Below, piece by piece: positions 2,907 through 47,210 of a stretch of 47,210 nt of DNA. A program made the translations under genes and the position numbers. Source of the stretch: a virus (Duplodnaviria; Caudoviricetes); the IMG/VR virus record IMGVR_UViG_3300032259_000007, positions 1-47,210 of that record. One strand, written 5' to 3'. The notes under the pieces were generated by a model. The model was given only the letters and a program-made list of their open reading frames with translations, ran no database searches and was not told where the DNA came from. Within the stretch, counting starts at the first letter, position 1, and each line of letters starts with the position of its first letter.

Positions 2907-3769
2907 GTATCAGTCCCCTTTAATTTTTCAGATATAAGGAAAATTACCTGCTCTAAATCCTCATGGGGGAGGGCGATAAATAGATTTTTTGCGGTTTTAT
3001 CAGGGTCGTTAATAAACACATTTAACGGGATAATTGTCACCCCTTGTTTAAATCGCGCTTCTTCTTTTGAGTTCTTGATATGTTCGATGCGCTTCAGGCT
3101 TAAAGCGCCATGCAATTTTTCACTTGTCAAATCCGACGCTTTGATAGGTTGATCAACGCCGGATTGTAAGTACCCCGTATTTAATATTTCGGCTCCAGTG
3201 GCTGAATTGTTTTTATGTAATTCAGAAATTTTATATATTAAACTTTGAGAATAAACACGTAACTCCTGAAGGCGCGAGCGCAAATAAGGGTCAAGCCCGC
3301 CATAGGCTATCTCAGCATAATAAGCGGTTCCCAGATCGACTTCTGATCTAATAACCCGACCTAACAGGGTTTTGTTTTTCCGGTATAGCATTGATAGACG
3401 AGAAACGTTAGCCCCTGAAGTTAATTTTAATCCACTAGCGATCGACCAAACTTCAGTTATTGTTTCTTCAGGTAAGCCCGCCAGCGACCGCGTTTGGTTT
3501 TCATTTTCGGGCGCGGGTAAATTTGCGCTCGTGATTACTTCACTAACAGAAGCCCCGTTCACAAGATATAGCGCGTGGCGCGTTGTTAGCCCCCACTTTT
3601 CTTTGCAATACGACTCCCAAGTATCATGGGTTACTTTGTATAATCCATATAAACGAATTTGACGCAATGCCAGCCCCACTCGAACGTATTGTTCGAGTCC
3701 GGCTTCAATGATCGCTTCGCATTCTTCAAGCTGATCAGTGATTGTAATTAATTCAATGTGTCGCGTCAT
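2897..3769 (-). CDS. Hypothetical phage/plasmid DNA-associated protein (DUF3102-like N-terminus)
   Basis: N-terminal pattern IEAGLEQYVRVGLALRQIR..LYK.THDTWESYCKEKWG resembles a helical domain common in phage proteins; overlaps the polX stop. Confidence 0.6.
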   Translation of the reverse strand: MTRHIELITITDQLEECEAIIEAGLEQYVRVGLALRQIRLYGLYKVTHDTWESYCKEKWGLTTRHALYLVNGASVSEVITSANLPAPENENQTRSLAGLPEETITEVWSIASGLKLTSGANVSRLSMLYRKNKTLLGRVIRSEVDLGTAYYAEIAYGGLDPYLRSRLQELRVYSQSLIYKISELHKNNSATGAEILNTGYLQSGVDQPIKASDLTSEKLHGALSLKRIEHIKNSKEEARFKQGVTIIPLNVFINDPDKTAKNLFIALPHEDLEQVIFLISEKLKGTDTLA

Positions 3770-4721
3770 CTTTCGCCTCGTTTAATAAATCCATTAAAAG
3801 GGAATAGCCATCGTCGGCTTCTTCAGCCTTGAATAAAGCCCGCGCACTTCTCAAAGTTAACCAAGAAACGAGGCGTTTTTCTTCTTCTATTCTGAAGCCT
3901 TCCTTCTGAAGAAGCTTAATATATTGAATGGCGCGGGGCGCGGGTAAATCATACAAAACCCAGTCGCCGTAACCCTCATAAACATAAATCTGATTACTTT
4001 TTAGGAAGGGCGACGCAGGCTCCCAAGCACCGTTTGAAACGTGTTTCTTTTCCCGTTCCGGTTTCGGTTTGTGTTCCGGTGTATATGGTTTTTCTTCAAC
4101 CTGAACGGGCAGTCTAATTTGTTTGGGAGGCGTGGGCAACAACTTATCAACATCGCCCCAGCCCGCCCATAAGTTACTTTCTAGTGCGTCCTGATATGTT
4201 TCAGGAATTCTCATTTCAGGAATGATAACGGGGCACCCGATCAGGCTGAAAAAATCTTCTTCAGTCTTTACGTTTAAAATATCTTTGGTGCCTTGTTTCC
4301 AAACGAAACCGTCCTTCAAAAGAAACGGGCAGTCCGGTGCGGACTTAATAAACGCCATGACATACTTATTAGAATCACCGTCGCCCGTTCGGAGCCATGA
4401 AATATAACCGTGATTTTTAGGATTAGAGAAGTAAATATCAAAAATCACGCCTTTATAGATCAGCCCCCGCGCCTTTTGCCCCCAGCGTTTACGCTTTGTT
4501 TTCCCGTAGGTTTTGTATTCCGCTTGCCCTGAAGCGATCAACTCGTCTAATAGACTGTGCGCTTTTTCACCTTCAGGTAAAATAATCAACTCAACATCTT
4601 TAACAAAGGAAGCCTTACGGCGAACGGAACCGCCGACCAAAATATCAACGCATGACGGCGTAATAATAGACAGAAACTCCTCTATTATGTGCCTTATTTC
4701 ATGTATTGATCTTTTCTTCAT
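3753..4721 (-). CDS. Minimal family X DNA polymerase / Pol-beta nucleotidyltransferase
   Basis: GGSVRR...KDVELII (GSxRR...DxD/E), VIFDIY (third acid), LRTG, and thumb motif TEEDFFSLIG..IIPEMR; no 8-kDa/fingers or PHP domain. Confidence 0.85.
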   Translation of the reverse strand: MKKRSIHEIRHIIEEFLSIITPSCVDILVGGSVRRKASFVKDVELIILPEGEKAHSLLDELIASGQAEYKTYGKTKRKRWGQKARGLIYKGVIFDIYFSNPKNHGYISWLRTGDGDSNKYVMAFIKSAPDCPFLLKDGFVWKQGTKDILNVKTEEDFFSLIGCPVIIPEMRIPETYQDALESNLWAGWGDVDKLLPTPPKQIRLPVQVEEKPYTPEHKPKPEREKKHVSNGAWEPASPFLKSNQIYVYEGYGDWVLYDLPAPRAIQYIKLLQKEGFRIEEEKRLVSWLTLRSARALFKAEEADDGYSLLMDLLNEAKDDATH

Positions 4722-5032
4722 TCTAAATCTACCTCGCTGGGGAATTCAAATAAATCATTCAACGAGCAATCGAAAAATTGCGAAATTTTCGTTAAAGCGT
4801 CCCGGCTGTAATGCTCTGATTGCCCCTTGCGGTACCGCGATAAAGTGCTATCAGAAACCCCTATCAACTCTGAAAATTCAGTTTGCGTTACCTTGCGCCC
4901 AACAGAGTCGCGGTAATCATTCATCAATTCTTCAAGGCGGAGTCGAATCCAAACTAAAGGGCTTAAATCCGTTTCAGGATTTCGAGTTACTTGCGGTTTT
5001 TTACTTTTATCAATGATGCGTCGTCTTCGCAT
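4718..5032 (-). CDS. XRE/Cro-CI helix-turn-helix regulator, probable repressor
   Basis: VTQTEFSELIGVSDSTLSRYRKG...LTKISQFFDCSLNDLF; first gene of the leftward operon; no S24 autocleavage domain. Confidence 0.9.
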   Translation of the reverse strand: MRRRRIIDKSKKPQVTRNPETDLSPLVWIRLRLEELMNDYRDSVGRKVTQTEFSELIGVSDSTLSRYRKGQSEHYSRDALTKISQFFDCSLNDLFEFPSEVDLE

Positions 5033-10830: not shown

Positions 10831-11451
10831 ATGAAAAGACGAAAAACAGCAAAAGCGAAATCGCCACTAATGCGAAAGAAAGAGATCGCCGACGTAGTTA
10901 CTTGGGCGCGATCAATGCTAACTTTACCCCCCGAAGATGTTATTATCTGGGATTGTGAGACAACCGACTTTACTGGTTTCATGGTGCAATTGGCGGGCGT
11001 TAATGGCGCGGGGGATGTGCTAGGCTCTATGCTGATCAACCCTGAAGTGCCTATTGAAGCCAAGGCGATGGCGGTTCATGGCATAACCGAAGACAAGGTT
11101 AAAAACGCCGTCCGCTTCAAGGACGCTTATGAAGGTATTTATGAGAAATTTAACGGTAAGCACTGGATTATATATAATAGCGAATTTGACACTGGTCGCT
11201 TACACGCTGAATGCAAGCGGTTAGGGCTTCCGGCTCCTAAACCTAAAAGCAATAATTGTGCAATGATACAATATGCAATTTTTAACGGCGACTGGAACGC
11301 TTACCACGGTAATTACAAATGGCAAAAATTAGCGGTCGCTTGCTCTAAATTGAAAATTAAGATTGAACACCTGAAGGCACACGACGCATTAAGTGACGTA
11401 TACATGACGTTGGAGGTCGTTAAGGCGTTAGCTAAACAGAAAATAACATGA
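10831..11451 (+). CDS. DEDDh 3'-5' exonuclease (DnaQ-like)
   Basis: IWDCETT, VHGIT, YNSEFD, AHDALSD. Confidence 0.93.
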   Translation: MKRRKTAKAKSPLMRKKEIADVVTWARSMLTLPPEDVIIWDCETTDFTGFMVQLAGVNGAGDVLGSMLINPEVPIEAKAMAVHGITEDKVKNAVRFKDAYEGIYEKFNGKHWIIYNSEFDTGRLHAECKRLGLPAPKPKSNNCAMIQYAIFNGDWNAYHGNYKWQKLAVACSKLKIKIEHLKAHDALSDVYMTLEVVKALAKQKIT

Positions 11452-11500: not shown

Positions 11501-11523
11501 GCCTACCCCCTAGAAAGCGGGGG

Positions 11524-11569
11524 TTGATAAGTGGGGTCACTTGCTGTATACTAGGTATATAGTCAGATA
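11524..11569 (+). promoter_or_regulatory. Shared-family promoter A with operator and conserved leader
   Basis: TTGATA-17-TATACT; AAGTGGGGTCACTT at 11529-11542; TAGTCAGATA at 11560-11569. Confidence 0.85.
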
Positions 11570-11588
11570 GAAACAAGGGATTAACAAA

Positions 11589-11816
11589 ATGTCTAAAAAT
11601 TACGCAAAACACCTAATTAATAACGTCGTTAAATCTATGGACGCGGGCGCGGATGCACACTCAAAAATACGACGTGAACGTGAATGCTACGCTTCAGAAG
11701 ATAGCCTTCTTGAAGAATTAGATTTTGAAAACGACGCTCGGATGTATTCAATTAAAACCCGTTTAGAATTTGCGGACGTAATTGAAGCCCTGATCAAAGG
11801 TTCAGGCAATGACTAG
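11589..11816 (+). CDS. Hypothetical protein (putative early gene)
   Basis: AAGGGA RBS; first gene after promoter A. Confidence 0.8.
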   Translation: MSKNYAKHLINNVVKSMDAGADAHSKIRRERECYASEDSLLEELDFENDARMYSIKTRLEFADVIEALIKGSGND

Positions 11817-12438: not shown

Positions 12439-12485
12439 ATAAATATTATACCACAACACCCCCGCTATTTAGGGGGTGTTTTATA

Positions 12486-12531
12486 TATACAAGTGGGGTC
12501 ACTTGTGGTATAATATTTATATAGTCAGATA
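12486..12531 (+). promoter_or_regulatory. Shared-family promoter B
   Basis: AAGTGGGGTCACTT at 12491-12504; TGgTATAAT at 12506-12514; TAGTCAGATA at 12522-12531. Confidence 0.85.
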
Positions 12532-12547
12532 CAAGGAGTTACACATT

Positions 12548-13018
12548 ATGAATAACTTATCAGTTGAAAATATTATCGCCCGAAGCCACGACGGGATTTG
12601 TGTAGTAAATCTTCATGACGCGATTGTTTTATACCGTGAAGAAACACGCGGGTTGATCAGCGTTTATCGCCCAATTCACCAAGAATACCAAGCGCGGGAC
12701 GGACAATGGTTTGAACTCAATAGCCACTGGCAATACTCATTTAATAACGCCAGTGTCATTGAAAATCAGATTTCAGAAGCGTATTATGATTTAGTACGCT
12801 TCGGGGAAGAAATCGTTTTATACACTTCAGGGCTTCCGGTTGATGTTAAATACCCTAACAGTGTTGAATTTCAAAGGGGCTTAGAAGTATATGTAACTGA
12901 TCTATTTTATGAAAATGGCGAACTATTTGTTCGGGGCGACGTGATTATGCAAACTGAAGATGGTTTAAAATCAACAGACTGGACATTCAATTTAACCGGA
13001 CTGAGTTTAACCGCCTAA
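12548..13018 (+). CDS. Hypothetical protein (likely paralog of the next gene)
   Basis: Start reassigned to ATG 12548 (AAGGAG RBS, MNNLSV...). Confidence 0.8.
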   Translation: MNNLSVENIIARSHDGICVVNLHDAIVLYREETRGLISVYRPIHQEYQARDGQWFELNSHWQYSFNNASVIENQISEAYYDLVRFGEEIVLYTSGLPVDVKYPNSVEFQRGLEVYVTDLFYENGELFVRGDVIMQTEDGLKSTDWTFNLTGLSLTA

Positions 13019-13028
13019 CAATAGGGGG

Positions 13029-13076
13029 TTGCGGAAGTGACCCCACTTAAAGTATAATTTATTACATAGTCAGATA
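13029..13076 (+). promoter_or_regulatory. Shared-family promoter C
   Basis: TTGCGG-18-TATAAT; operator in inverted orientation AAGTGACCCCACTT at 13035-13048; TAGTCAGATA at 13067-13076. Confidence 0.85.
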
Positions 13077-13091
13077 AGAGGAATAAACAAA

Positions 13092-13631
13092 ATGAACAAT
13101 TTAACAGTTAACCAAGTGTTAATCGAACGCCTGCGACCAAACGAAGAAGACGTTGTTGTTTTTGGAAGTATTGATTTTTTCGATACCGCCCGCCAGCAAA
13201 CCCTAATCGTCAACGTAGCAAATAAACCTCGGCTTTACACCGCTTGTAATGAGGGTTTGATCAGAGTAGCGCGGGCTGAAAACCAAGAAATGGTTAGTCC
13301 TGAAAATGATTTACTTTCAACTTATTACAGTTGTTTTGGTTTAAGCGATCTTAGCTTTGATAATTATCATGAGGTTGCCGAATTTGTCAAAAAGCAATAT
13401 GTTGAATCGACTATTGAAGACCCGTTATTCTTGTATTCCAACCCCAAATCGGAACTTTCAATTTCAAAAAATTCCATATCTGTTTTAGTTACCGGAATAA
13501 AAGAAGTTGACGGCGCGATTTATATTGAGGGTAAATACACAATCGGAAGACGAACCGAAACGGGGACAATAACTGCCCTGAAGGGGACGGGTTTATTTTC
13601 TCTTTATGATTTACTAAGAAACCCCGCCTAA
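13092..13631 (+). CDS. Hypothetical protein
   Basis: GAGGA RBS; begins MNNLTV. Confidence 0.8.
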   Translation: MNNLTVNQVLIERLRPNEEDVVVFGSIDFFDTARQQTLIVNVANKPRLYTACNEGLIRVARAENQEMVSPENDLLSTYYSCFGLSDLSFDNYHEVAEFVKKQYVESTIEDPLFLYSNPKSELSISKNSISVLVTGIKEVDGAIYIEGKYTIGRRTETGTITALKGTGLFSLYDLLRNPA

Positions 13632-13698: not shown

Positions 13699-13998
13699 AT
13701 GCCTGTGCATATGTTAAAAAAGACTGACGAAAACGGGAACACTGTTTTAGAAGAAATGGAAGCTCCCGAAGGGGGCAAATCGCGCCCTAAAGTTACAATG
13801 ACGCTTGCCCAGCAAGAAGCGGTAACTGAGTGGGGCACAAGCCAAGACCCGCCCACGTCCGGTTTTGCTGATGCGATTCGGCGTTTATGTTCACTTCACA
13901 TTGAAGACTTTGAAAACGAAATTAAGTGGGGGGGGGCGCGTAAACCTGATCGGCGCCGTCGCCCTAAAAAAGAAGAACCTATCGAAGAATCTAAATAA
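13699..13998 (+). CDS. Small putative DNA-binding protein (possible ribbon-helix-helix)
   Basis: PKVTMT-helix-...FADAIRRL pattern and basic tail; family call is weak. Confidence 0.5.
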   Translation: MPVHMLKKTDENGNTVLEEMEAPEGGKSRPKVTMTLAQQEAVTEWGTSQDPPTSGFADAIRRLCSLHIEDFENEIKWGGARKPDRRRRPKKEEPIEESK

Positions 13999-14016
13999 GC
14001 CCTGATCAGGGGCTTA
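13996..14016. terminator. Hairpin joining two convergent stop codons
   Basis: TAAGCCC-tgatcag-GGGCTTA. Confidence 0.6.
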
Positions 14017-14973
14017 ATAATTGATTTTAAAATCCCTTAATGACGCTGACAAATCACCTATGTAACTTTTAAGCGTTGTTTGGGGATTTTTGTGCCCCAT
14101 GTTTTGCATAATTGACTCCACTGAAACCCCACTTTCATAAGCCGTCCGTGCATAAGTCGCCCGTATATCATGAGGCTTTACGACATACTTAACCCCATGA
14201 TGGACTACAGGGTACCGACTTAGAATATATTCAATGCTACGCTTGTTTAAGCCCGTCTTCTTCACTTTCGAGTCCTTAGTAACCCCCCTGAAGACCGCGC
14301 CCCCTTCTATTCCTGACAAATCAAGCCAGTTTAATAGTTCCGGCATAAAGTAGTCGCGCATTGCCCCCACTGGTATCTTGCGCGACTTATTTCCTTTACC
14401 CTTCACAATATGAATAGCGGGTAAATCACCATAGCGACTTCTTAAGTCCCGTTCTTTTAAATTGGCGCATTCCGCCTCCCGAATTCCGGTACTTAACAGC
14501 AACTTGATTAAGGCTAAATCTCTAATCCCCTTTAGCGTTGTTTCGTCAGGTTGGCTTAATAATTCGGCAATTTGATCGCTGTTTAAGTGGACGCGGGTTT
14601 CTTTATCCTGATCAAATGTAACGGGGAAATTTACCGCCTTATTATGCAAAACATTATCAAGCTGAATTAGCCATTCATTAACCGCTTCAATTCCGTAATC
14701 TACTGTTAATTGACGGCGTAGCGCGTTGTTACGCATAAGTCGCCTGTACTCGACCCTGATTGTACTCAAGTGAGCATTTAGGCTAACATTTGCCATGCGC
14801 TTCTGTAAATGCTCCCCGTATTCCTGAAGATTAGGCACGAGCCAATATTCAGAGGGTTTGTTTTCCAACCAGTCTATATAGGGCTTTATCCTGTATAGCG
14901 TGTTTTCATTCGCCTGATCAGGCAAAAGCAAGCTGGGGGAGGGCGGTTCAACAATCATTAATTTATTTGACAT
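14014..14973 (-). CDS. Tyrosine recombinase (XerC/D-like resolvase or integrase)
   Basis: RDLALI..LLSTGIREAE, KGKGNK, HDIR, MGH and C-terminal Y: full R-K-H-R-H-Y set; no arm-binding domain evident. Confidence 0.93.
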   Translation of the reverse strand: MSNKLMIVEPPSPSLLLPDQANENTLYRIKPYIDWLENKPSEYWLVPNLQEYGEHLQKRMANVSLNAHLSTIRVEYRRLMRNNALRRQLTVDYGIEAVNEWLIQLDNVLHNKAVNFPVTFDQDKETRVHLNSDQIAELLSQPDETTLKGIRDLALIKLLLSTGIREAECANLKERDLRSRYGDLPAIHIVKGKGNKSRKIPVGAMRDYFMPELLNWLDLSGIEGGAVFRGVTKDSKVKKTGLNKRSIEYILSRYPVVHHGVKYVVKPHDIRATYARTAYESGVSVESIMQNMGHKNPQTTLKSYIGDLSASLRDFKINY

Positions 14974-19765: not shown

Positions 19766-19794
19766 AAAAACAGGGCTATCTGATCAGATAGCCC
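19764..19794 (-). terminator. Palindromic terminator between convergent genes
   Basis: Perfect 22-bp palindrome GGGCTATCTGATCAGATAGCCC (19773-19794) with a T7 tract on the minus strand. Confidence 0.7.
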
Positions 19795-20129: not shown

Positions 20130-20283
20130 TGCTTATCCTCCCGCCCGTTAGGGCATTTTGAAATCCGTCAAATTGCGAATTTCCGATATTTTAGCCCCTT
20201 GGCTTAAAAGCGTTGGAAACGTTTGTTCTCGCGGTATCCCGTCCGCGCTTCTGGTATATGCCCCAGTGGGCTATCAACTAACT
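20130..20283 (-). ncRNA. Candidate structured cis-regulatory leader RNA
   Basis: Four internal hairpins enclosed by GGGGCAU/AUGCCCU, with competing hairpins at both ends. Confidence 0.5.
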
Positions 20284-20338
20284 ATATACATATTGTAATC
20301 CCAAGTGGGGAAACTTGCAACCCCCACTTTCTAGGGGG
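20281..20338 (-). promoter_or_regulatory. Shared-family promoter D (58-bp perfect inverted copy of 42292-42349)
   Basis: TTGCAA-17-TACAAT with operator AAGTTTCCCCACTT; its upstream flank also matches 11490-11526 at 36/37. Confidence 0.88.
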
Positions 20339-20344: not shown

Positions 20345-20432
20345 ACAAAAAAGCGGACACGCCGTCAATAAGTCTCGCGCCCGCTTTTCAGATGATATAT
20401 AGTTACTTGGGTGAAAAGCACTATATACAGTA
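20345..20432 (-). ncRNA. Candidate small RNA ending in an intrinsic terminator
   Basis: TGgTAATAT at 20447-20439; hairpin TATATAGT/ACTATATA; terminator GCGGGCGC...GTGTCCGC-T6; 14 nt complementary to the helicase leader. Confidence 0.4.
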
Positions 20433-20465
20433 AAAACAATATTACCATAGTTTGTATATAAAAAC

Positions 20466-20589: not shown

Positions 20590-21426
20590 CTAATTACAAC
20601 TGTGAGAACTAAACGCCGACCAGTTCTCATTCGGCGTGGGGTCTAAATCAATTTCAAAATAATAAAACGCTTGCGCGGGGGCGACCCACTCAATATTGTC
20701 GCCAAATGAAACCGAACTGAAAACAAGTTCAAAATATTGACCGTTGATCGCCTGCCGTACTCGGTAATTGTAAGTCCCCTGAATTAAGAAGACGAAATCA
20801 AAACAAAGATTTGAATAATCAGGCGTGGGCAATGGCTCAATAATGTTATATGGGATTTCGGGATTTTGCGGGTACGAATTCAGGATAGTAACCAAATTAA
20901 GCCCCGCCAGTGTATTGTAATTCGGAGTCTGTACACCATACACCGCGTCCCATGTTCGAGCAGAGTACCGCCCCTGAAATGAAATTAACACCCAAGGAGT
21001 ATCCATTTCAAGATAACTTACGCCCAACGGAATAACAATATCATACGGGCGCAATCGTCCCCAGCGTGATGTAACCCATCGGGTATCAGGCTGGATTAGT
21101 ACAGGGTCGTAAGGTGCGCCGTTTTCATCAAAGTAAATGCGCCGTTGTTGCGGGTAATTCCCCCAAACATCCACATTTTCATCCAATGTGTCGCCGTATA
21201 CTTGCCCCGTATCGTTTGTGATTTTTACGAGTGAACAACCAACAGCGCACCCGTCCCTAAAGCCTACAATTTCCACTTCAATAGCGAAGTTTGATAATAT
21301 CCAAGAATAGTCGCCTTCGGGGAATGCGGGGTAGTCAGCTTCTGGGGGTTGTTGGGCTGAAACGGGCGCGACCAATAATAGCAACAATAGAACAAATGTA
21401 ACAATACCTGCAAATTTAGCCTTCAT
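20590..21426 (-). CDS. Secreted protein (moron-like)
   Basis: Sec signal MKAK-hydrophobic-VSA/QQ; GAGG RBS; separated from the late operon by its own promoter/leader. Confidence 0.8.
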   Translation of the reverse strand: MKAKFAGIVTFVLLLLLLVAPVSAQQPPEADYPAFPEGDYSWILSNFAIEVEIVGFRDGCAVGCSLVKITNDTGQVYGDTLDENVDVWGNYPQQRRIYFDENGAPYDPVLIQPDTRWVTSRWGRLRPYDIVIPLGVSYLEMDTPWVLISFQGRYSARTWDAVYGVQTPNYNTLAGLNLVTILNSYPQNPEIPYNIIEPLPTPDYSNLCFDFVFLIQGTYNYRVRQAINGQYFELVFSSVSFGDNIEWVAPAQAFYYFEIDLDPTPNENWSAFSSHSCN

Positions 21427-21447: not shown

Positions 21448-21584
21448 AACACAAAACTGGCGAAGGTCTAACCCCCCCCGCCAGCCTGCTCACTTCCCCG
21501 TCTAGTCAGATATAAGGAATATGTGAAGCCTTCTATCAACGGAGAAATTAGATTAAATTTAATAAACCTGATTAAAGTTTACAC
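21448..21584 (-). ncRNA. Putative trans-acting antisense sRNA against the shared TAGTCAGATA leader
   Basis: Own promoter; contains CAUAUUCCUUAUAUCUGACUAGA (21523-21501); terminator CTGGCG...CGCCAG-TTTTGTGTTT (21484-21448). Confidence 0.7.
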
Positions 21585-21589
21585 TTACA

Positions 21590-21618
21590 AGTATAAGCGA
21601 AATTGATTAATTAATCAA
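21590..21618 (-). promoter_or_regulatory. Promoter of the sRNA/secreted-protein unit with an overlapping palindrome
   Basis: TTGATT-17-TATACT; perfect palindrome TTGATTAATTAATCAA at 21603-21618. Confidence 0.75.
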
Positions 21619-27081: not shown

Positions 27082-29867
27082 TATGGAAATCCTGACGTTA
27101 TTTGAAGTGCGGTATTTGTTGCTTGATTAGCTGAAGCAGGATTGCTTGGGTTAATCGTAGTGTTATTGTTATATGTCTGACTGTTATAGTATTCGCCACC
27201 GTATGGAATGCCGGGTAATGAGAGCGACCCCGGTAAGGCATTAGCGGTTGTGACCAAATTGCCAAATAATAAAGAGAGTGCGGTTAAGTCTGTAGTCAAT
27301 GCCCCCATGCTTGTCTGAACAGTCCCGACAAATTGATCAACTCGACCTTCGGTAACGCCTAATTCGGTGTCAGCGCGGGTGCTAAAATCACCAAAACTAC
27401 CCCCTGCCTCGTCTAATGCGAGCGCTAAATCGCTCCCTGATTGCTCGACGTTTTCATTCATATCGCCTATAAATTGGGTAACATTATCAGTGGCGGTTTC
27501 TGTTATAGTTTCTAATTCATCTAACGGAATACCCGCGTCGATCGCCATCTGTTCAATCGACGCGACTAGACCTTCCTCCCCTGTCACTTCTTCTAAGTCC
27601 CCCGCAAAACTTAATGCTTCAGTCAAAGCGTCCGTGTCTACCGCCTCGCCCCTAAATGCGGTAGACAACGATTCATTCAGGCTATCTTGTAAGACCGCAA
27701 CTGCGTCGTCGGCTATAGTATTGACGCTTTCCAAGTCTATAAAATCGGACATATCAGTAACATCGAGCAAAGCGGGGTTTTCAGACAACGCTAATAATTG
27801 AGCTTGAAACGCTTCAGCAAATTCCTCCGGCACATTTAATAATTCGGTTTCAGCGTCTAACATATTTTGTACAAATTCGGGACTTTCGGCATTTACCATT
27901 TCTTGCAATGCTTCAGCCGTTGATCGTACAGTGTCCTCGTCCGGGTAAAATTCTGTTAACAATTCACTACTGGATAAGTTTGCAATTGTTTCCATCGCAT
28001 CGCGTAAAGCGACTATTTGTTCTACGTCGCCAATTTCAACCGCCGAGTCAAATTGATCAGACAACTGGGTTAATAAGTCGCTAGACTCGACCCCCCGTGT
28101 TAAGGCATCAGAAACCGCGTCTTCAATGTCGGCGGTATTGTCAGCCGTTGCCAAGTCAATCTGTAATTCCCCTCCCGCCAAAGTTCCTAATGCTTCCCTA
28201 ATGCCATCACCTGAAGTGGTTGGTACAACATCCAGTACATCGGCAAGGGCTAAACCCAAACTAAAGAAGCCGTCGCTTATTGCCTCACGGACATCAAGCA
28301 AAACTTCTATTATTCGGTTGTCATCAAATGACATACGGAAAGAAGCACCAATGCTTGCGCCTGATTGCACATTATCAAAAAATGACTGTAAATCGCCTGC
28401 CATTTCATCAAGGAGTCCAGTAATGTCAAGCTGATCATCTAGGAACTCGCCCAACCCGACTGAAACGACACGCTTTGCGCGTTCAAGCGCGTCGGGTAAA
28501 TTACTGCTAAGTTCCACGCCTGCATCTTCAAGCGCACTATCAGTAACAATCAATTGTTCGTCAATATCGGTTAAGGCATCAAGAAATACCTGCGGGTTAA
28601 AATCCTCAAATTGAGTCCCGAATACTTCAACCGCCTGACGACTCCGCTCGGCGGGGTCTTCAATCCCCGACAATGCAAGCATTACTGAATTGATAAATTC
28701 GCCACCGGAAATCCTACCCTGCCGGAAATCTTCAGCAAGTTCGTCGACCCCTAAGTTTTCAAAAATCCCTTGTAATTCTTCGGGGTTTTCAGTTACCCGA
28801 ATTCTGAATTCACGAAACGAGTCGGCGATGCGGTCGGTGTTATCAATACCCGCGTCGAGTCCGGCGTTTAATAAATTCATTGCCCCTTCAGCGTCAAGCC
28901 CCAGCCCCTTGAACGTCGTGCCGTATTCGTTAAAGGTGTCTAGAAAATCGCCACCAATATTCAGCCCGTTCTGGAAACCCGTTTGCAGCACATCGCCCGC
29001 TTCGTCAAATGATGTTACTAAATCATTACGGACTAAGTTGACCATTGTTCTAAGGATTTCTTGTGGGTCTTCCCCGTTTATATCAGACAACATCAAAGCG
29101 TTTTCAGTCGCTTCTTCTAAGTTGCCCATTTCAATGCCGTATTGCTGTGAAAGACTTAATACCTCGGCAATTTCGGAGCGCGAACCGCCCCACCCATTGG
29201 TGAAAATGTCATTAATTAATTTATCAGCATCAGGTATCATTTCGCTTGTGGTGGCGTTCAAGCGACCTAAAATGCTATCCATTTCAAGCAACCCACTAAG
29301 TCCCGAAATATCGGCGAGTCCGGTAATAAAATCAACCGCCCCGCCCGTAATTGTGGTCGCTATCGAAATTACATTACTTGTATTTGACAGAAAATTAGTA
29401 AGGGCTTGATAGTCCGAACTTTCGTTAACATTAACATCGACATCAACGTCATCGCCATCAGCACTATCTATCTGCCGAATCAATTCAACCAATTCGGAAA
29501 GATTGACATTAACCCCTACGTCAATATTTTCCCCGTCAATGCCATCGACGGTTGTTTGTGTGTCGTCTAATTCAGTCGAGTCGACATCAACATCGACGTT
29601 AATTTCTTGCCCATCTAAATTGTCAATATCAGATTGAACATTAAGCAATTCACCCAGCGAAACACCCACGCCAATATTGACACCCTCAGAGTCGAGGCGA
29701 TCAATGTAACTAAAAACACCGCTTATCGCGGTGTCGTCAATGTTTACGCCTATATTAATGTCTTGCTCTAATTGGTTTAGAGTTCTGACTAAATCAGCTT
29801 TTTCCCTCTCAAGTTGTTTTGTATCTAACTTAACAAGGATTTCTAATTCAGGTGTATCGCCCGGCAT
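27081..29867 (-). CDS. Tape measure protein
   Basis: 928 aa, helical; DFLDTFNEY..F..LG, DRIADSFREF, VFGTQFED; follows the chaperone genes. Confidence 0.9.
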   Translation of the reverse strand: MPGDTPELEILVKLDTKQLEREKADLVRTLNQLEQDINIGVNIDDTAISGVFSYIDRLDSEGVNIGVGVSLGELLNVQSDIDNLDGQEINVDVDVDSTELDDTQTTVDGIDGENIDVGVNVNLSELVELIRQIDSADGDDVDVDVNVNESSDYQALTNFLSNTSNVISIATTITGGAVDFITGLADISGLSGLLEMDSILGRLNATTSEMIPDADKLINDIFTNGWGGSRSEIAEVLSLSQQYGIEMGNLEEATENALMLSDINGEDPQEILRTMVNLVRNDLVTSFDEAGDVLQTGFQNGLNIGGDFLDTFNEYGTTFKGLGLDAEGAMNLLNAGLDAGIDNTDRIADSFREFRIRVTENPEELQGIFENLGVDELAEDFRQGRISGGEFINSVMLALSGIEDPAERSRQAVEVFGTQFEDFNPQVFLDALTDIDEQLIVTDSALEDAGVELSSNLPDALERAKRVVSVGLGEFLDDQLDITGLLDEMAGDLQSFFDNVQSGASIGASFRMSFDDNRIIEVLLDVREAISDGFFSLGLALADVLDVVPTTSGDGIREALGTLAGGELQIDLATADNTADIEDAVSDALTRGVESSDLLTQLSDQFDSAVEIGDVEQIVALRDAMETIANLSSSELLTEFYPDEDTVRSTAEALQEMVNAESPEFVQNMLDAETELLNVPEEFAEAFQAQLLALSENPALLDVTDMSDFIDLESVNTIADDAVAVLQDSLNESLSTAFRGEAVDTDALTEALSFAGDLEEVTGEEGLVASIEQMAIDAGIPLDELETITETATDNVTQFIGDMNENVEQSGSDLALALDEAGGSFGDFSTRADTELGVTEGRVDQFVGTVQTSMGALTTDLTALSLLFGNLVTTANALPGSLSLPGIPYGGEYYNSQTYNNNTTINPSNPASANQATNTALQITSGFP

Positions 29868-35109: not shown

Positions 35110-35181
35110 GATTTTACCTTATCATTTTTTGATTTAGTTTCTTTAATCAGGTTTAGCTTTTCAATTTGATCAGGCTAGCGG

Positions 35182-37321: not shown

Positions 37322-40297
37322 TTACGCGACGGCGGTTTCTTCAGTATAAATCGCCTTAATTCTTCCCTTTGCCCGCCCTTTAACCGTTCGGAGGTTGCAA
37401 CCACATCTATACCCCTTACATTTGGTTGCTTGCCCTACCCTCGGCGGGTTATGAAGGTTATGTTTTCTGTATATATTCCGGCGATGGCGTTGTCCTGACA
37501 ACTTTTTGCAAGTCGTGCAGTTGTCTTTTGTTCGATTAACAGCCCATTCTTGCATAGGGTTGTAACCCGCCGAATCGAGTCCGGCTGAATAGGCGGGGTT
37601 AATGGTTCCGGCAAACCAAAGGGCTGGCTTATTGTCAATATCCCCGTCCGTTATGCCGTCATTAGCCAGTAAATTTTTGACCAATTTGTTAATTAAAGGC
37701 GTGGCTGAAACGGTTAAGGCTCTAATTGTTGCCAAGTCATCTTCTGACATTGAACCGTCAAGCACTCCCCCGTCGATCAACCCGTCTTCATAAGCGATTC
37801 TGATGTAATGAGAAACAATAGACCGGAAGCGGTCGCGCAAAACCCGTTCGGGCATATTACGCGCTTTTGCACGTTGAAGTAGGTTTTCAATGTCGCCTTC
37901 AAAGTCGAGCCGTGTTGATTGAATCGATTTAAGGGCTAACAGCTTCTTAGCTTCTGAATACCAGAAATCATAATCTTCTGATAAATCAATCAAAGCACTT
38001 TTAACGCCGTCCGCTTCTGGGTCTAAATTAATGAAGCGTGATTTCCCCAGCCGTTGATCAGGGTTTTGAATACGTCTTACAAACCGGACGACGTTTTCAG
38101 GCAAATATTCAAACTCGAACTCGACCGACTTCCCTTCCTTCTTCATTTTACGTCGCCAGTTCTTTAATTCTTGTTTAGCCTCGCGCTTCAAAATTGCGAC
38201 GCGGGGGTCTACTTGCTCGTGGATTGTTTCATAGTCATTACGTTGAATAACCAAGGCTTGTCCGTCAAGACCGAAAACAACCTCGGCGGGGGTGAAATCC
38301 TTCGCTAATTCAGCCGGAATATAAGCCAAGGTCACATGGGGAGTCCAGTCGCTTGGCTTACTGTGTTCTGACATTTCAACGCGGGTGCGCCGGAAGGCAC
38401 TATAAATATATTCCTGAAAAACTTGAAGCCCTGATTGATTATGAATAAGCAAAACTAACGGGACTAAATCATCGTCGGCTTCAAAGACATCCAACGAATG
38501 AGTAACCAAAACGGGAAAATCTAATTCAGCCGGAACGTCGGCGATTATTTCATTCGCCTGATCAGGTGAAACATTAGGCGAATAAGCCAGCGTTACATGG
38601 TATTCTTCAGGCTTAACCCATTCAATATCATCATTTCTGAATTGTTCCTTCAGCCGTTCGCAATACTCAGTTATAGCGGGGTCGTCAGTCAATGTGATTG
38701 ACGAGTACAAATGATCAGTGACGGCTTTACCTGTAAACGCCCGCCGAATCGAGTCAGGCAATGCTTTGAGTTTGTCCAGATGTGATTGATCAATATAACC
38801 GTAAGGCATTTTAACTTGCTTGTTACCAGCGTCTTCTTTTTCGATTTCGACTTTATCTTCTTCAATTTCAACGTCGGCGCGGTTGCGCTCACGGTCTACA
38901 TTGACCTGCTGAATTTGGGCGGTCGCCTGAAGGCTATCGGCTTCAGCTTGCTGGGCTAACAACGCTTGATCAGTTTGCCCACTCGCGTGGGGGATTTCAT
39001 CTCCCGGAATAATACCCGCGTTGATTGTTGACGGGGCAATAACAAGGTTATACCGCCATACGTTTCTAAAGTCCGCAATCGGTACCCAGCCCACGCCTTC
39101 ATACCAATGCAAATTTTTAAATTCAGGGGCGGGCTTTTCACCCAGCGCAACCTGAACAACGTCCAACGAAATCGCGCCCGTTTTTGATTTAAGTTCGATT
39201 GTTTCAATCTTCTTTAGTTCGTCTTCAGTCAAAAACGGGACGGAGTCTTTATCTAATTCAACTCTATATGTTGATTTGTAATCGCGGGCTAATTGTTCTG
39301 TGAAGTGCGAAGCATACCACTCGCCACGCGGTAACAGCCAGCTTTGCGCCCAATCCGAGCTATCTTCTGATCGACTTAAGCCTGAAGAAACAAGATAGGA
39401 AGCAACCATTGAAAGTGGAACGCCATAAACCGCGCTTGTTGTTTGCCACACTTTTTCATCTAAGTGCCCCAGTTGCAAATCTTTAAACGCTGATCTTAAC
39501 TCTTTAACGTCCCAGCGTTGAACTGTTCCGAAATTAGTGCCCGCATTCCGACTCCCCTTCAGGGCGCGGGACATGCTTGCCATTAACTTACGCAATGACG
39601 AGTCGTTAACCTTAACATTTTTAGCCTGATCAACGGCTGGTTGAAATAGCAAAGGCGGAACCGCGCCATTTTCAAATGTAGCCTTTTCGGTTGTATCAAC
39701 TTCATAACCGATCATGGCGGTAATATAGGCGACTTCAGCCGGAGCCAGCCCGTCGTAATCATCGAGTAAATCAATTTCAGTTAGCCATACCGCGTCATGA
39801 GGATATATAGTTCTTTCTAAATAATCCTCCCACTTGCGGTTGTCAGTGTCACCCCGAATAAGCCAACGCAATATTTGGGAACGCGGGTCGGTGTCGTAAA
39901 TCGTAGGGTTAACCCATTTTAAACTGGTTGGAATATCATTATCCCGGCGCAACTTGTAAAGTAAGTTGTAACCGAAGTAACAAAGGGATAATTCAGATCG
40001 ACGCATTAAGTCCGCGAATTGATGCTTACCAGCAAAGAATAATGTAAGCGGGTGTTGTTCCGGTAAAGCCTGATCGCCGTCAAATACTTTGAATTTAAAT
40101 TTACCGACATTATCCGACCGAATTTGTGAATTCACATAATTTGGGGGTGAAACTCGGCGCAAGTGTGCAAGCTGAATCGCGCTGGGAATTTCTACGTCTT
40201 TACTTGATAAGTAAGCATTCAACTGGTGCATATATGTTTTTATGCCTTCAGCGTTGCTCGGTCTATACAGCTTTTCCAAAAAGTTAAAACCTACCAT
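37322..40297 (-). CDS. Portal protein fused to 2H phosphoesterase and MuF-like domains
   Basis: Portal N-terminus (HPL, GLAPAE, FENGAVP, VYGVP); two HxT motifs (YHVTLAY, PHVTLAY); C-terminal W...CTTC..LSG...CKGYRCGC. Confidence 0.85.
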   Translation of the reverse strand: MVGFNFLEKLYRPSNAEGIKTYMHQLNAYLSSKDVEIPSAIQLAHLRRVSPPNYVNSQIRSDNVGKFKFKVFDGDQALPEQHPLTLFFAGKHQFADLMRRSELSLCYFGYNLLYKLRRDNDIPTSLKWVNPTIYDTDPRSQILRWLIRGDTDNRKWEDYLERTIYPHDAVWLTEIDLLDDYDGLAPAEVAYITAMIGYEVDTTEKATFENGAVPPLLFQPAVDQAKNVKVNDSSLRKLMASMSRALKGSRNAGTNFGTVQRWDVKELRSAFKDLQLGHLDEKVWQTTSAVYGVPLSMVASYLVSSGLSRSEDSSDWAQSWLLPRGEWYASHFTEQLARDYKSTYRVELDKDSVPFLTEDELKKIETIELKSKTGAISLDVVQVALGEKPAPEFKNLHWYEGVGWVPIADFRNVWRYNLVIAPSTINAGIIPGDEIPHASGQTDQALLAQQAEADSLQATAQIQQVNVDRERNRADVEIEEDKVEIEKEDAGNKQVKMPYGYIDQSHLDKLKALPDSIRRAFTGKAVTDHLYSSITLTDDPAITEYCERLKEQFRNDDIEWVKPEEYHVTLAYSPNVSPDQANEIIADVPAELDFPVLVTHSLDVFEADDDLVPLVLLIHNQSGLQVFQEYIYSAFRRTRVEMSEHSKPSDWTPHVTLAYIPAELAKDFTPAEVVFGLDGQALVIQRNDYETIHEQVDPRVAILKREAKQELKNWRRKMKKEGKSVEFEFEYLPENVVRFVRRIQNPDQRLGKSRFINLDPEADGVKSALIDLSEDYDFWYSEAKKLLALKSIQSTRLDFEGDIENLLQRAKARNMPERVLRDRFRSIVSHYIRIAYEDGLIDGGVLDGSMSEDDLATIRALTVSATPLINKLVKNLLANDGITDGDIDNKPALWFAGTINPAYSAGLDSAGYNPMQEWAVNRTKDNCTTCKKLSGQRHRRNIYRKHNLHNPPRVGQATKCKGYRCGCNLRTVKGRAKGRIKAIYTEETAVA

Positions 40298-42291: not shown

Positions 42292-42355
42292 CCCCCTAGA
42301 AAGTGGGGGTTGCAAGTTTCCCCACTTGGGATTACAATATGTATATAGTCAGATA
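42292..42355 (+). promoter_or_regulatory. Shared-family promoter E
   Basis: TTGCAA-17-TACAAT; AAGTTTCCCCACTT at 42314-42327; TAGTCAGATA at 42346-42355. Confidence 0.88.
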
Positions 42356-42375
42356 GTAATTAAGGAATTAACCGA

Positions 42376-42591
42376 ATGACACATAACGAAATGATCGCAC
42401 CAAACGTAACCCGTAACCAAATTATGAAATTTGCGGAATTAGCGGATGCGATTGAATGTTCAAACAGTTCAACCCGCACTTACCGCGTTAACGTTGTTTT
42501 AGGAAACCAAGACGACCCCCGCCCTTACTGGGTAGCAGATAGCCCCCGAACAGCAGGTCGCCTGATCAAAGCGGGATTTCAATACGCTTAA
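42376..42591 (+). CDS. Small hypothetical protein; stand-alone unit antisense within the late operon
   Basis: Own promoter, AAGGA RBS and terminator. Confidence 0.8.
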   Translation: MTHNEMIAPNVTRNQIMKFAELADAIECSNSSTRTYRVNVVLGNQDDPRPYWVADSPRTAGRLIKAGFQYA

Positions 42592-42632: not shown

Positions 42633-43953
42633 CGAGTTCAGGCTGAAGCCCCATATTTTCTAATCTCTCAAGAATAACCGCGACATAATGGGATTCGAGT
42701 TCCATTCCGAAACCTTGTCGGCGTGTTTGCTCACAAGCGACTAAGGTTGTGCCGGAACCGCAAAACGGATCGTAAACACCCTGCCCTATTTCGGTATTAT
42801 TCAAGATAGGGCGACGCATACAATCAAGGGGTTTTTGTGTAGAATGCCCAGTCGACTCGTCCCCTTCCCCGTCAAGTTTACCCGCATTTGCCGATTTTAT
42901 ATCCCAGACCGTGTTTTGAGTTCGGTCGCCCTGCCAATTTGACGACATCCCTTTCCTAACAGCGTACCAGCATGGCTCATGCTTCCAGTGATAATTAGCC
43001 CGCCCAATGCTATGATTTGATTTATTCCAGATAATCTGCGATTTAATCTCATAACCCGCATTGATTAAGCTATCTTGAACCGCCCCTGCAAATAAGCCCG
43101 CGTGCCACACATAGGCGACTTGACAATCAGCTAAAATATAGGCTTCAGTCCAGTCCGCATTGTCATCATTGGCAACAACCCCTGAAGCGTGGCTGGCTTT
43201 TGCATCAATTTTACGTCGCCATGACGGGTCGTAATTAACCCCGTATGGGGGGTCGGTATCCATTAATACAGGTTTAACGCCATTGAATAAACGTTTCACC
43301 TGATCAGCGTCCGTCGAACTGCCAATAAGTAAGCGGTGTTTAAATTTACCTTGGAGGCTTGGAATAACCCAAAGTTGCCCCACTTCGGTTTCCCACTTCC
43401 CTTGTAGCTTATTCATTTCTTCTTCGCGGGGACTTTCTTGAATGCCCCCGTTTTCAGATTCTTGTTTTACCAGCGCGGGTGAAATCAACGCGCTTAACTC
43501 TTTTGAAGTGAAGAATTTACTTAAATCCAGTCCGGCGTTTTGATCAGCAATAATTTGCTCGGCGTTCCACTTAAGTGAGACTTCCCCTGCGCGATTGTCA
43601 TAATATGCCAATTGGCGGGCGGGGTTATCTTCTTCTTCAGATAATAAATCTAAATCAGTGCGCTTAACAACGACTAACTTAGTCCCGTCCGTTTCGACGA
43701 TAATAGTATCTTCAAGCCCCGCGTCAGAAGCGGTCGACGTTGCTTTGTTGCCCGCGATCAAATAATCGTTTTTATCAGTAACAACCGACCGCCCCAGCCC
43801 CGTTTTAGCGACCGAATTACTAAGCATCATCCCGCCTCTTTTGGTTCCGGCGTTGGCATTAGCGGGGTCTTGTTTCAGGTCGGCGACTTTACCCTTTGCA
43901 ACTTTGGGATTCTGATCAGTCAAAACATTAGCCCCCGAATAATGTAATGGCAA
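42625..43953 (-). CDS. DNA N6-adenine/N4-cytosine methyltransferase (beta class) with ParB-like N-terminus
   Basis: DPANAN..., LIAGN, YYDNR (ParB-like); TDPPY, IIWNK, HSTQKP, DPFCGSGTT. Confidence 0.92.
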   Translation of the reverse strand: MPLHYSGANVLTDQNPKVAKGKVADLKQDPANANAGTKRGGMMLSNSVAKTGLGRSVVTDKNDYLIAGNKATSTASDAGLEDTIIVETDGTKLVVVKRTDLDLLSEEEDNPARQLAYYDNRAGEVSLKWNAEQIIADQNAGLDLSKFFTSKELSALISPALVKQESENGGIQESPREEEMNKLQGKWETEVGQLWVIPSLQGKFKHRLLIGSSTDADQVKRLFNGVKPVLMDTDPPYGVNYDPSWRRKIDAKASHASGVVANDDNADWTEAYILADCQVAYVWHAGLFAGAVQDSLINAGYEIKSQIIWNKSNHSIGRANYHWKHEPCWYAVRKGMSSNWQGDRTQNTVWDIKSANAGKLDGEGDESTGHSTQKPLDCMRRPILNNTEIGQGVYDPFCGSGTTLVACEQTRRQGFGMELESHYVAVILERLENMGLQPELEK

Positions 43954-44953: not shown

Positions 44954-45016
44954 TTGCAAGTGACCCCCGAAGCGAGGTATAATATTCTTAATGAATAACC
45001 AGTCTTCTAGTCAGAT
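44954..45016 (+). promoter_or_regulatory. Shared-family promoter F (helicase)
   Basis: TTGCAA-18-TATAAT; partial operator AAGTGACCCC; TCTAGTCAGAT at 45006-45016. Confidence 0.75.
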
Positions 45017-45040
45017 GATATATATAAAGGAAGTTTTACT

Positions 45041-47210
45041 ATGTCAGGATTAAAAGCCCTTAATTTTCCACCAACGGACGAGCAAAGAGAAATAGAGCGA
45101 ATAGCCCGCCGTATGATCGACATGCAATTTAACCCCGAAACAAAGAAGCCATTCAGTGTAAATTCAATGGCGGTAAACGCAGGCGCGGGGGTCGGCAAAA
45201 CAGCAACAGGACTGCACATAATTGAAAACGTCGTTCCTAAAAATCATTCTTGTGTTTTCGTCAGCTTCAATTCAAAGATTAAACATGAAATTGAAAACAA
45301 GCTGAAGAAATTGAAAATTCACCCCAAGGCAAAATCTAAAACATTCAACGGTTTAGCCTATAATTTATTCTTTCAATATTACAAAATCGACTATGATAAA
45401 TCTGATCAGATTGTCGCCATTGACGATTTCAAAGCCCGCACTATTGCTGAATACTTGCTGACAACAAAACTCGCTTACAAACAACTTGCACAATATAAGC
45501 CTGAAGACCTTGATAAAGCCTATGCACAAGCAAAGTCCTATTTGGTGGATTTAATTAATTTTTGGCAATGCAACACCACAATCGACCACGACCGGAAAAG
45601 CGACTGGGTTTTAAAAATATTTCAAGGAGGGCGACTCGCTGACGGCGACGCGCTTGACGAATTCAACCCCAGCGATTTGGATATTGTTGCTCGATTATCA
45701 ACCCGTTATCAATTAACGGTTTCAGAATGCCCTTTGATCCACGGCTGGCTGAATACCCTACTCGCCCCCGCCCTTGAACTTAACCATCTAATGATGGAAA
45801 AGCCCCACGACGCTTGGGATAAAATACAAGCACCCTTGGCAAAAGCGGGTATAAAAATTAAAAGCCCCCTGAAGCCGTCAGTTAAGCACTGGGTAACATT
45901 CACTGACATGGTTTATTATTCCGTTGTTTTAAACTGGAAAGTCCGCTTCAGGTATATGTGGGTGTTTGCTGACGAGGCGCAAGATATGAGTCCATTAGAC
46001 CGCGCAATAGTTGAAAAACATTTATATATCAGGGGCGGTAAACGGCTGGGAAATATTTGCTTAACGGGTGATGATAAACAGGCGATCAACGGATGGCGCG
46101 GGGCTGACAATAACGGTTTCTTCAATAGCCAGTGGTTTTGGGGAGTTCGTAAAGAGCAGGTCGGGAAGTTATCAGTTTCCTTTAGAGTTACCAAAAACAC
46201 CGCAAAACTAGCGAGAACTGTTAAGCGCGTGTTCTTTGCTCATGAGGATAACAAGGACGGGGTTATTGCCCACATCAACACTGAAGACCTAATTGAAATG
46301 GCGAAACCCGGCGACGCGATGTTATCGCGGACGGGGGCTGAATTAATTAAGTGTTGGCACATGCTCACATTAAAAGGTAAGCCTGCCCGTATTAAAGCCC
46401 GCGACCTAATCACGCCAATTATCAAAGTAATTGAAGACATTGAAAAATTAGAGGGCTTCCGCTATTCCGCCCTGCCCGACTTCGCTAATCAGCTTTATGA
46501 AACCCAAGAATTAAAAACCAAAGACATCCTTAAAACCGATGCGTCCGCCCTTGCGCGTTTAATGCGTTTAAAAGACAATATTGAAATCATTGTTTATTTA
46601 CATGAAACATTCAGCGCGATAAATTCTTCAGGGTTGATCAGCCAAATCGAAACAAAATTAGACCCAGCCAACCAACCAAAGGGCGAGGCGATCGACGTAG
46701 CGACCGCCCATTCGGTAAAGGGGGCTGAATTCAACACGGTCTTTATTTTAACCCCTGAAAAGTTCCCATTGATATTTGATACTTCAACGCCTGAAGACAT
46801 CATTCAGGAATATAATTTATTTTATGTTGCAATCACGCGGAGCCGGGGCGATGTGTATTTCCTTGACAAAAACAAACTCGCCCTCTCATTCTTGAATGCA
46901 AAGAAAAACGGCACTGAAGCCAATTTGTATTATGACATACCCAAGCCCCGCGAGTTTGTTCCGGCTGAAACCGTTGAAGTAATTGAAGATGACTCCCCCG
47001 CCCTGCCCGAAGTTGATCAGGAAACTCCGGAACCTGAAGCGACCCCTGAAGCGGTCGCTGATCAGCCCGCGCCTAAAGTTATTCAGCCATCTTTATTTAC
47101 TGAAGAAGTAAAACCCAAAAATACCGGCGCGGACTTAACTTTAGCGAACACATTAAAAAAAGCGAACAAACCGCCAAATGTAACGGGGGATTTAAACAAA
47201 TATTTACGGC
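45041..47210 (+). CDS. UvrD/Rep-like SF1 helicase (~762 aa including the wrapped part; missing from the ORF track)
   Basis: TDEQ, AGAGVGKT, FADEAQD, GDDKQAINGWRGAD, SFR, TAHSVKGAEF, NLFYVAITRS. Confidence 0.93.
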   Translation, partial: MSGLKALNFPPTDEQREIERIARRMIDMQFNPETKKPFSVNSMAVNAGAGVGKTATGLHIIENVVPKNHSCVFVSFNSKIKHEIENKLKKLKIHPKAKSKTFNGLAYNLFFQYYKIDYDKSDQIVAIDDFKARTIAEYLLTTKLAYKQLAQYKPEDLDKAYAQAKSYLVDLINFWQCNTTIDHDRKSDWVLKIFQGGRLADGDALDEFNPSDLDIVARLSTRYQLTVSECPLIHGWLNTLLAPALELNHLMMEKPHDAWDKIQAPLAKAGIKIKSPLKPSVKHWVTFTDMVYYSVVLNWKVRFRYMWVFADEAQDMSPLDRAIVEKHLYIRGGKRLGNICLTGDDKQAINGWRGADNNGFFNSQWFWGVRKEQVGKLSVSFRVTKNTAKLARTVKRVFFAHEDNKDGVIAHINTEDLIEMAKPGDAMLSRTGAELIKCWHMLTLKGKPARIKARDLITPIIKVIEDIEKLEGFRYSALPDFANQLYETQELKTKDILKTDASALARLMRLKDNIEIIVYLHETFSAINSSGLISQIETKLDPANQPKGEAIDVATAHSVKGAEFNTVFILTPEKFPLIFDTSTPEDIIQEYNLFYVAITRSRGDVYFLDKNKLALSFLNAKKNGTEANLYYDIPKPREFVPAETVEVIEDDSPALPEVDQETPEPEATPEAVADQPAPKVIQPSLFTEEVKPKNTGADLTLANTLKKANKPPNVTGDLNKYLR
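47011..47040 (+). repeat. Intragenic repeat, diverged copy 3 (VDQETPEPEA)
   Basis: 27/30 identical to copies 1 and 2; two of the three changes are synonymous. Confidence 0.85.
47075..47210. repeat. Terminal direct repeat, right copy
   Basis: Matches 1-136 with one mismatch. Confidence 0.97.

Follow-up and report, generated by a model that had tools for sequence, protein, structure and literature searches.

Several described systems are close to the locus examined in this paper. According to the available text of two papers (PMC5320573, PMC8201110), the C4 RNA of phages P1 and P7 is a phage-encoded structured RNA that targets the ant operon by two-part recognition, with one loop on the ribosome-binding site (RBS) and one upstream (PMC5320573). 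It contains three stem-loops (P1-P3), and its 5' end is matured by RNase P to a form of ~77 nt. The portion of PMC4825925 consulted describes the CI RNA of P4 as a small immunity-type RNA from an untranslated leader region, pairing with the flanking sites seqA and seqC in its own transcript and causing termination. The SAS/ESAS elements of Cluster K phages, as given in the sections consulted of PMC3203893, are asymmetric repeats beside start sites, with an upstream inverted repeat and a rare copy on the complementary strand. The 13-bp SAS consensus, GGGATAGGAGCCC, overlaps the Shine-Dalgarno sequence (SD), and those sections leave open both the function and whether the partner is RNA or protein. 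The phage sRNAs VpdS and PreS are cases in which one RNA reaches several mRNAs through a short imperfect seed; in the excerpts of PMC12197685 such sRNAs depend on Hfq, and their targets are host RNAs, or both host and phage RNAs. Finally, the PeSL cassettes of the T4-like phages RB49 and phi1 repeat a sigma70 promoter, a polyC/polyG stem-loop and an SD before small orphan genes, and genes are shuffled by recombination among the cassettes; the word 'antisense' is absent from the main text of PMC2839356.

The window analysed here is a whole viral record of 47,210 nt from a sediment phage (IMG/VR IMGVR_UViG_3300032259_000007) with a terminal overlap of ~135 nt. A temperate phage is indicated by the integrase (14014-14973), the XRE-type regulator (4718-5032) and the rest of the encoded gene set, including Erf, DnaB, a UvrD-like helicase (45041 onward, plus strand), terminase, portal, HK97-type capsid and tape measure. 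The relatives reached via a tail protein are distant (mostly ~30% identity), and one of them lies on a contig of an Anaerolineaceae MAG, from which we infer a Chloroflexota host. Two protein homologs are closer, P0002 (56% identical) and P0012 (48%). In the one DNA sequencing run examined, possibly the source, no variants were present, and a search for RNA data found none. The portal protein (37322-40297, 991 aa) contains a 2H-phosphoesterase (LigT-like) domain at about residues 540-690.

An earlier note on this DNA had described a minus-strand promoter, a non-coding stretch and a terminator, the whole containing the reverse complement of a leader sequence. All of these elements were found, with the copy of the leader motif TAGTCAGATA at 21503 lying inside the unit, and the features are as follows.

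21590..21618, minus strand: sigma70-type promoter of the RNA, TTGATT-17-TATACT (9/12 match)
21603..21618: perfect palindrome of 16 bp overlying the -35 box; only one other perfect palindrome in the genome reaches 16 bp
21448..21583, minus strand: candidate non-coding RNA of ~136 nt, with the 5' end placed from the -10 box (MFE -42.8, z -3.3)
21562..21582, minus strand: predicted 5' hairpin
21492..21548, minus strand: predicted central hairpin, in which an 11-bp stem and a 6-nt bulge are followed by two helices of 4 bp separated by a 1x1 loop, and by an 11-nt loop
21501..21523, minus strand: antisense seed, composed of anti-SD UUCCUU and anti-leader UAUCUGACUAGA
21503..21508, minus strand: exposed bulge UGACUA (mean unpaired probability of UGAC 0.95), candidate toehold for the 5' UAGUCA of the targets
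21454..21487, minus strand: intrinsic terminator with 13 pairs (z -4.4 for the stretch)
20590..21426, minus strand: 278-aa ORF, start ~24 nt past the terminator, no separate promoter visible; one homolog in the protein collection

The terminator is strong, surpassing every other minus-strand terminator downstream of the virion/lysis genes. The promoter match is weak; it is not significant alone, as such matches occur in this region at chance density (27 vs 26.3 expected). The 16-bp palindrome is a possible operator for the RNA's own promoter. Another perfect palindrome, of 22 bp, is located between convergent genes at 19773-19794 and includes TCAGATAG.

Exact copies of TAGTCAGATA, all on the plus strand, occur at 11560, 12522, 13067, 21503 and 42346, and copies with one mismatch occur at 45008 in the helicase leader and at 8693 (intragenic, minus strand). 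The expectation for these 7 matches is 1.46, and a count of 7 was not reached in any of 100 shuffles. The feature is real and non-random. Nearly the same sequence is carried in the leaders of five other promoters, as had been reported, with four copies exact and the helicase copy one mismatch away. All leader copies are in sense orientation. In four leaders the motif lies 7-8 nt past the -10 box, which is the inferred transcript start; in the helicase leader the distance is 24 nt. The plus-strand copy at 21503 has no -10 box at the cassette distance and runs into an SD followed only by ATG-TGA, both verified from the earlier description. The inverted copy retains exactly the motif and the SD; no part of the target promoters' operator or -10 box is kept. 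The A-to-G differences among the leaders, taken before as preserving G-U pairing, do exist, but they fall inside the purine-rich SD and would be expected there regardless.

The target promoters themselves are repeated cassettes made up of a CCCC/GGGG hairpin, -35 box, palindrome, -10 box, motif and SD. The cassettes and one neighbouring gene are as follows.

11506..11591, plus strand: cassette 1, with C/G hairpin, promoter 11524-11552, operator 11529-11542, motif 11560, SD and the start of a 75-aa ORF
12455..12550, plus strand: cassette 2, with hairpin, promoter 12486-12514, operator 12491-12504, motif 12522 and start 12548
13026..13094, plus strand: cassette 3, with operator 13035-13048, -10 box TATAAT 13053, motif 13067 and start 13092; best predicted target
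42292..42378, plus strand: cassette 4, with hairpin, promoter 42310-42338, operator 42314-42327, motif 42346 and start 42376
44954..45043, plus strand: helicase promoter, with degenerate operator 44958-44971, motif 45006-45016 and UvrD-like helicase start 45041
20281..20338, minus strand: sixth cassette, matching cassette 4 exactly over 58 bp; at -3.5 kcal/mol it is not predicted to be a target
13699..13998, plus strand: 99-aa orphan ORF, ribbon-helix-helix-like by an Atlas lead only (low-confidence model, pTM 0.19)

The CCCC/GGGG hairpin is clear in three of the five target cassettes and in the sixth. The palindrome AAGT(G/T)-N4-CACTT is found between -35 and -10 in four target promoters, is degenerate in the helicase promoter, and recurs in the sixth, minus-strand promoter at 20320. 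Its orientation varies among the promoters, as expected of a protein operator. This shared operator, AAGTG-N4-CACTT, had been overlooked, together with the sixth operator promoter and its variant leader, which begins TAGTTAGTTGATA (TAGTTAG). The ORF at 13699-13998 is the last gene of the cassette cluster, and it is possibly the repressor that binds the operator. The genes driven by the cassettes are small and belong to no Pfam or PHROG family, except for one sub-threshold Pfam match; ORFs 12548 and 13092 were considered as paralogs and are not clearly so. This target side is similar to the PeSL cassettes in its repeated sigma70 promoter, polyC/polyG stem-loop, SD and small orphan genes. Unlike the T4-like lytic phages that carry PeSL cassettes, the present phage is temperate, with an integrase, XRE regulator, HK97-type capsid and tape measure, and it adds a shared palindromic operator and an antisense copy.

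Several other observations were made around the cassettes. A good operator copy is located at 43372-43385 within the DNA methyltransferase gene, outside the cassettes. The leader of the sixth cassette (20285-20215, minus strand) contains two hairpins conserved in the distant relative L029 (18992-18925, minus strand), with a compensatory pair in the second stem and no Rfam match; they are a possible antitermination-type or other cis element. The 58-bp perfect inverted repeat (20281-20338 and 42292-42349) brackets a 22-kb virion block. Logan contigs break at this repeat and no joints were listed, so the orientation of the block is unproven, or the block could invert.

The pattern of a -10 box, ~7 nt and TAGTCA is not confined to this phage. 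It recurs in the relatives G001, G005, G009, G011, G790, G793, G797, G798, L016, L024 and L029, and also in phages that share no or almost no genes, and what the phage group conserves at +1 is the hexamer exposed in the candidate RNA. Many of these phages carry +1 TAGTCA with no antisense unit found, so the sequence comparison suggests that the leader motif is probably older than the RNA. A double-stranded DNA role would account for such spread: TAGTCAGATA could be half of an operator placed at the transcription start, or a promoter element that RNA polymerase recognises, with 21503 as one more site. The distance to the -10 box is fixed in four of the five promoters, the +1 motif of G791 belongs to TAGTCAA-N1/3-TTGACTA palindromes, and a -35 box in G797 and G798 has TAGTCAA as its reverse complement. 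Against this stand the asymmetry of the motif, which is always in sense, and the palindromic operator already present at these promoters. Moreover, the match at 21503 continues through the SD across bulges of 0 to ~9 nt, an arrangement that suits RNA pairing and not a protein footprint. Origin as a host promoter feature was rejected, since the cassette pattern occurred in only 1/401 sampled genomes of the phylum Chloroflexota and 0/401 of the class. We regard a DNA site as quite unlikely. The palindromic cassette leaders of G791 at 3118, 3578, 4593 and 6277 could be either an operator or a self-pairing 5' hairpin.

The predicted fold of the unit is specific to one strand, reaching -42.8 kcal/mol on the minus strand (z -3.3) vs -26.0 kcal/mol on the plus strand (z -2.0), and the central part without the terminator gives z -1.8 (p 0.044). 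In the favoured fold the 11-bp stem is followed by the 6-nt bulge UGACUA, and then by GAUA/UAUC and AAGG/CCUU around the 11-nt loop. Most of the antisense is predicted to be self-paired, with only UGACUA open, the complement of the first hexamer of the targets. The 5' arm of the central hairpin mimics the target sequence GAUA-n-AAGG, and the anti-SD would be hidden beneath this copying arm. The single unpaired base between the short helices faces the variable position of the targets (C, A, GAAAC, GTAAT), and on the minus strand each of the three non-Watson-Crick pairs in the lower stem is a G-U pair. The stem proposed earlier, with GACU in an apical loop, is +5.4 kcal/mol above this fold (-37.4 vs -42.8) and is not favoured in the full RNA; it wins only after removal of ~40 nt from the 5' end.

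The complementarity to the leaders clearly exceeds chance. The best duplexes with the five leaders sum to -105, compared with -52.4 +/- 7.5 for dinucleotide shuffles (best -82.7; 0/200 reach the observed value). With a 28-nt seed, the five leaders occupy ranks 1-5 among 53 gene starts (-24.0 to -17.6; next -14.5), a ranking that is partly circular because this seed was picked for its leader match; with an unselected 61-nt core they rank 1, 5, 8, 11 and 12 among the 53. Several non-leader windows are predicted to bind the seed as well as leader 11560 does. With four leaders, two paired stretches of 10 bp and 7-8 bp are predicted; the predicted duplex with the helicase leader is longer and interrupted.

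When structure is allowed for, the full-length RNA is predicted to bind the leaders at 13067 (-10.3), 45008 (-10.4) and 12522 (-5.9) above the controls, but those at 11560 (-4.0) and 42346 (-3.0 kcal/mol) fall within the range of six control leaders (-1.7 to -5.4). An RNA starting at 21540 would bind all five at -7.9 to -16.1 vs -2.5 to -4.9 for controls. The pairing with leaders proposed in the earlier note is predicted above controls for three leaders at full length and for five after trimming. A 53-nt core would bind its own leaders at -7.2 to -15.6, and only 4/30 leaders of other phages reach -7.2. In addition, 15 nt of the 5' hairpin (21563-21577) form an exact complement of the late transcript's stretch 35141-35155 (minus strand), a possible second target site between the major capsid gene and the next gene.

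The position of the unit directly before the 278-aa ORF (21426-20590), which has no visible promoter, raises a further reading, that the unit is the leader of this ORF and acts as an attenuator, with the 5' ends of early mRNAs binding to switch read-through; the RNA would be a sensor and not a repressor. The G011 unit at 28311 likewise precedes a same-strand gene, but for 300 nt downstream of the G790 unit there is no ORF on its strand. In addition, the terminator remains formed in co-folded complexes with the leaders at 12522, 13067 and 45008, which makes such a role less likely. We consider an attenuator very unlikely.

Apart from the unit under study, other candidate antisense RNAs are present in the phage. 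The second unit is as follows.

20346..20444, minus strand: second candidate antisense unit, with an extended -10, hairpin and terminator (z -4.5)

Its 14 nt at 20388-20401 are complementary to the helicase leader at 45011-45024, with predicted binding of -10.9 to that leader and -1.6 to -4.5 to the others. A third unit of promoter, non-coding stretch and terminator (44414-44298, minus strand) lies directly before ORF 44299-43928, and no target for it was found. In the Erf/replication operon, the plus-strand leader contains at 6055-6021 (minus strand) a terminator of 14 pairs whose U-tract is present only on the minus strand; it suggests a cis-antisense RNA.

Homologs of the RNA itself were not detected. 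There were none by blastn against annotated phages and none in five related viral records. A viral scan for operator plus motif gave 5 matches, all chance, and a scan for hairpin plus seed gave 62, with no recognisable homolog among the matches listed. Rfam gave no match at gathering score in the window and none over the unit at E<=10, so the family search proposed earlier returned nothing; on the five loci holding the units of relatives it gave tRNA only.

Comparable units were found in two distant relatives. G790 has 11 TAGTCA leaders and a unit with the promoter TTGACA-17-TATGAT, in which the 5' end is an anti-SD and the terminator loop is UCUGACUAG. In G011, one unit is antisense to a promoterless gene start and carries TCTGACTA in its terminator, and in the second ATCTGAC is predicted to be single-stranded ahead of the terminator; for both, the cassette leader of G011 itself is the best predicted partner (-11.8, -17.6). 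The predicted folds leave UGAC largely unpaired in the G790 unit (0.91) and in a further unit, G011 at 28311 (0.85). An anti-SD followed by TCTGACTA occurs in 2/24 promoter-terminator units (G011 and G790) vs 0.026 expected, and TCTGAC in 4/24 vs 0.47 expected, under strict criteria set post hoc after the cases were known, with G011 and G790 reached via the sense motif. This test covered 26 other records and left out G010, G012, G014, G015, G791, G795 and smaller loci. The TCTGAC unit of G009, one of the four, is self-sequestered by its own 5' end and was not counted. The units of G004 are predicted to bind their own leaders well (-18.3, -16.6), but one is an unstructured pyrimidine tract and was not counted. 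GACTAG matches in L018 and L022 were read as gene ends.

Other comparisons were negative. TGACTA was not enriched near non-coding terminators (8/399; 24/180 permutations as high), nor was CTGAC in hairpin loops (9/2003, mean 10). Neither G793 (complete, 2 cassettes) nor G001 (96%) yielded a unit with the 8-mer. In G790, TAGTCAA in the leaders faces CTGACTA in the unit, leaving the seventh base unmatched with no compensatory change, and the unit is predicted not to be specific for its own leaders; the covariation of seed and leader suggested earlier did not appear in clean form.

These negative enrichment tests, together with the widespread +1 TAGTCA in phages where the unit was not found, agree with a relic: PeSL-like cassettes would have recombined and left part of a leader, inverted, in the 3' UTR/terminator region of the late operon, transcribed and with no meaningful regulation of the leaders. 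The cassettes are recombinogenic-looking repeats with a 58-bp perfect copy, the late genes need the terminator regardless, and the antisense is mostly self-paired. A chance fragment does not readily explain why the copy retains exactly the motif and SD, forms part of a minus-strand hairpin that carries a matching mimic arm, and has comparable units in G011 and G790. We judge a relic to be rather unlikely.

Short promoter-terminator units are frequent in the phage group, and most are antisense to an SD and start codon on the opposite strand. Examples are as follows.

L018, 5208-5138
L026, 19260-19332
G004, 36195-36120
G005, 11213-11300
L034, 7639-7722

In G009 (62848-62705, minus strand), the first 15 nt of a leader pair perfectly with a stretch ~100 nt downstream, a pairing predicted to close a multi-stem structure ahead of the gene. 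A conserved structured promoter-terminator RNA of ~110 nt, unrelated to the seed, is present in G008 (3195-3081, minus strand) and L029 (13892-14005).

As a whole, the evidence makes it reasonably probable that the unit is a C4/CI-like, multi-target, trans-acting antisense RNA layered on PeSL-like operator cassettes. The earlier proposal of an RNA repressor of a whole early regulon is partly upheld, by the complementarity, the strand-specific structure, the preference for the phage's own leaders and the comparable units in two distant relatives, and it requires the addition of the shared DNA operator. Its description as reminiscent of C4 and CI but multi-target, and of no recognised family, agrees with the comparisons made here. 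As in C4, recognition would be in two parts, the RBS and an upstream element, although here only the predicted duplexes have this form. The active form of C4, in the text consulted, is possibly 5'-trimmed, as may apply here, where trimming improves predicted binding. In contrast to the three stem-loops of C4, the candidate RNA is modelled as a 5' hairpin, a bulged hairpin and a terminator; its predicted targets are five dispersed transcripts, and the C4 covariance model in Rfam does not match it. With P4 CI it shares the character of a small immunity-type RNA with short complementary phage sites, but its matching sites are all on other transcripts and cover the SD, and no minus-strand copy of the motif lies near the unit. 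Judged by sequence and model, it is not a member of the C4 or CI family. The asymmetric repeat, inverted repeat and rare complementary copy resemble SAS/ESAS, but the leaders here carry TAGTCAGATA-n-AAGG with the motif at the start of the transcript, and a promoter-terminator unit contains the odd copy. Unlike VpdS and PreS, with which it shares a short imperfect seed for several mRNAs, the address is carried by the phage's own leaders. No description of this system was found in the literature searched, which was thin on subscription journals.

In the proposed mechanism, the candidate RNA would be a post-transcriptional second lock on operator-controlled early cassettes. Its own promoter would produce it, probably in the lysogen too, and read-through of the late operon would yield it as a 3' end. 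A cassette mRNA, with its unstructured UAGUCA at the 5' end, would pair through this hexamer with the bulge UGACUA; the mRNA would then displace the look-alike arm (GAUA-G-AAGG) of the RNA and zip over the SD. Trimming of the 5' end or a chaperone may make pairing favourable for all five leaders, and the outcome would be blocked 30S loading or degradation of the mRNA. A protein bound to AAGTG-N4-CACTT, for which the RHH-like ORF 13699-13998 is a possible candidate, would exert separate control over cassette transcription. A promoter of its own with a 16-bp palindrome would suit the lysogen, and a terminator after the virion/lysis genes would raise the RNA late in lytic growth, shutting early genes.

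A more speculative extension, possible but doubtful, is a natural toehold switch, with the antisense stored under a target mimic and opened only by the free 5' hexamer of this mRNA class. One RNA could thereby silence every gene that recombines in behind the cassette promoter, the 5' hairpin may also read the site in the late capsid operon, and related Chloroflexota-type phages may use diverged versions of the address and its reader.

C4 and CI act on one operon. If the proposal is true, the RNA described here instead addresses the 5' ends of dispersed, shuffled early cassettes. Repeated leader motifs of phages would then gain a function, and the accessory genes behind them would be under double control by protein and RNA.
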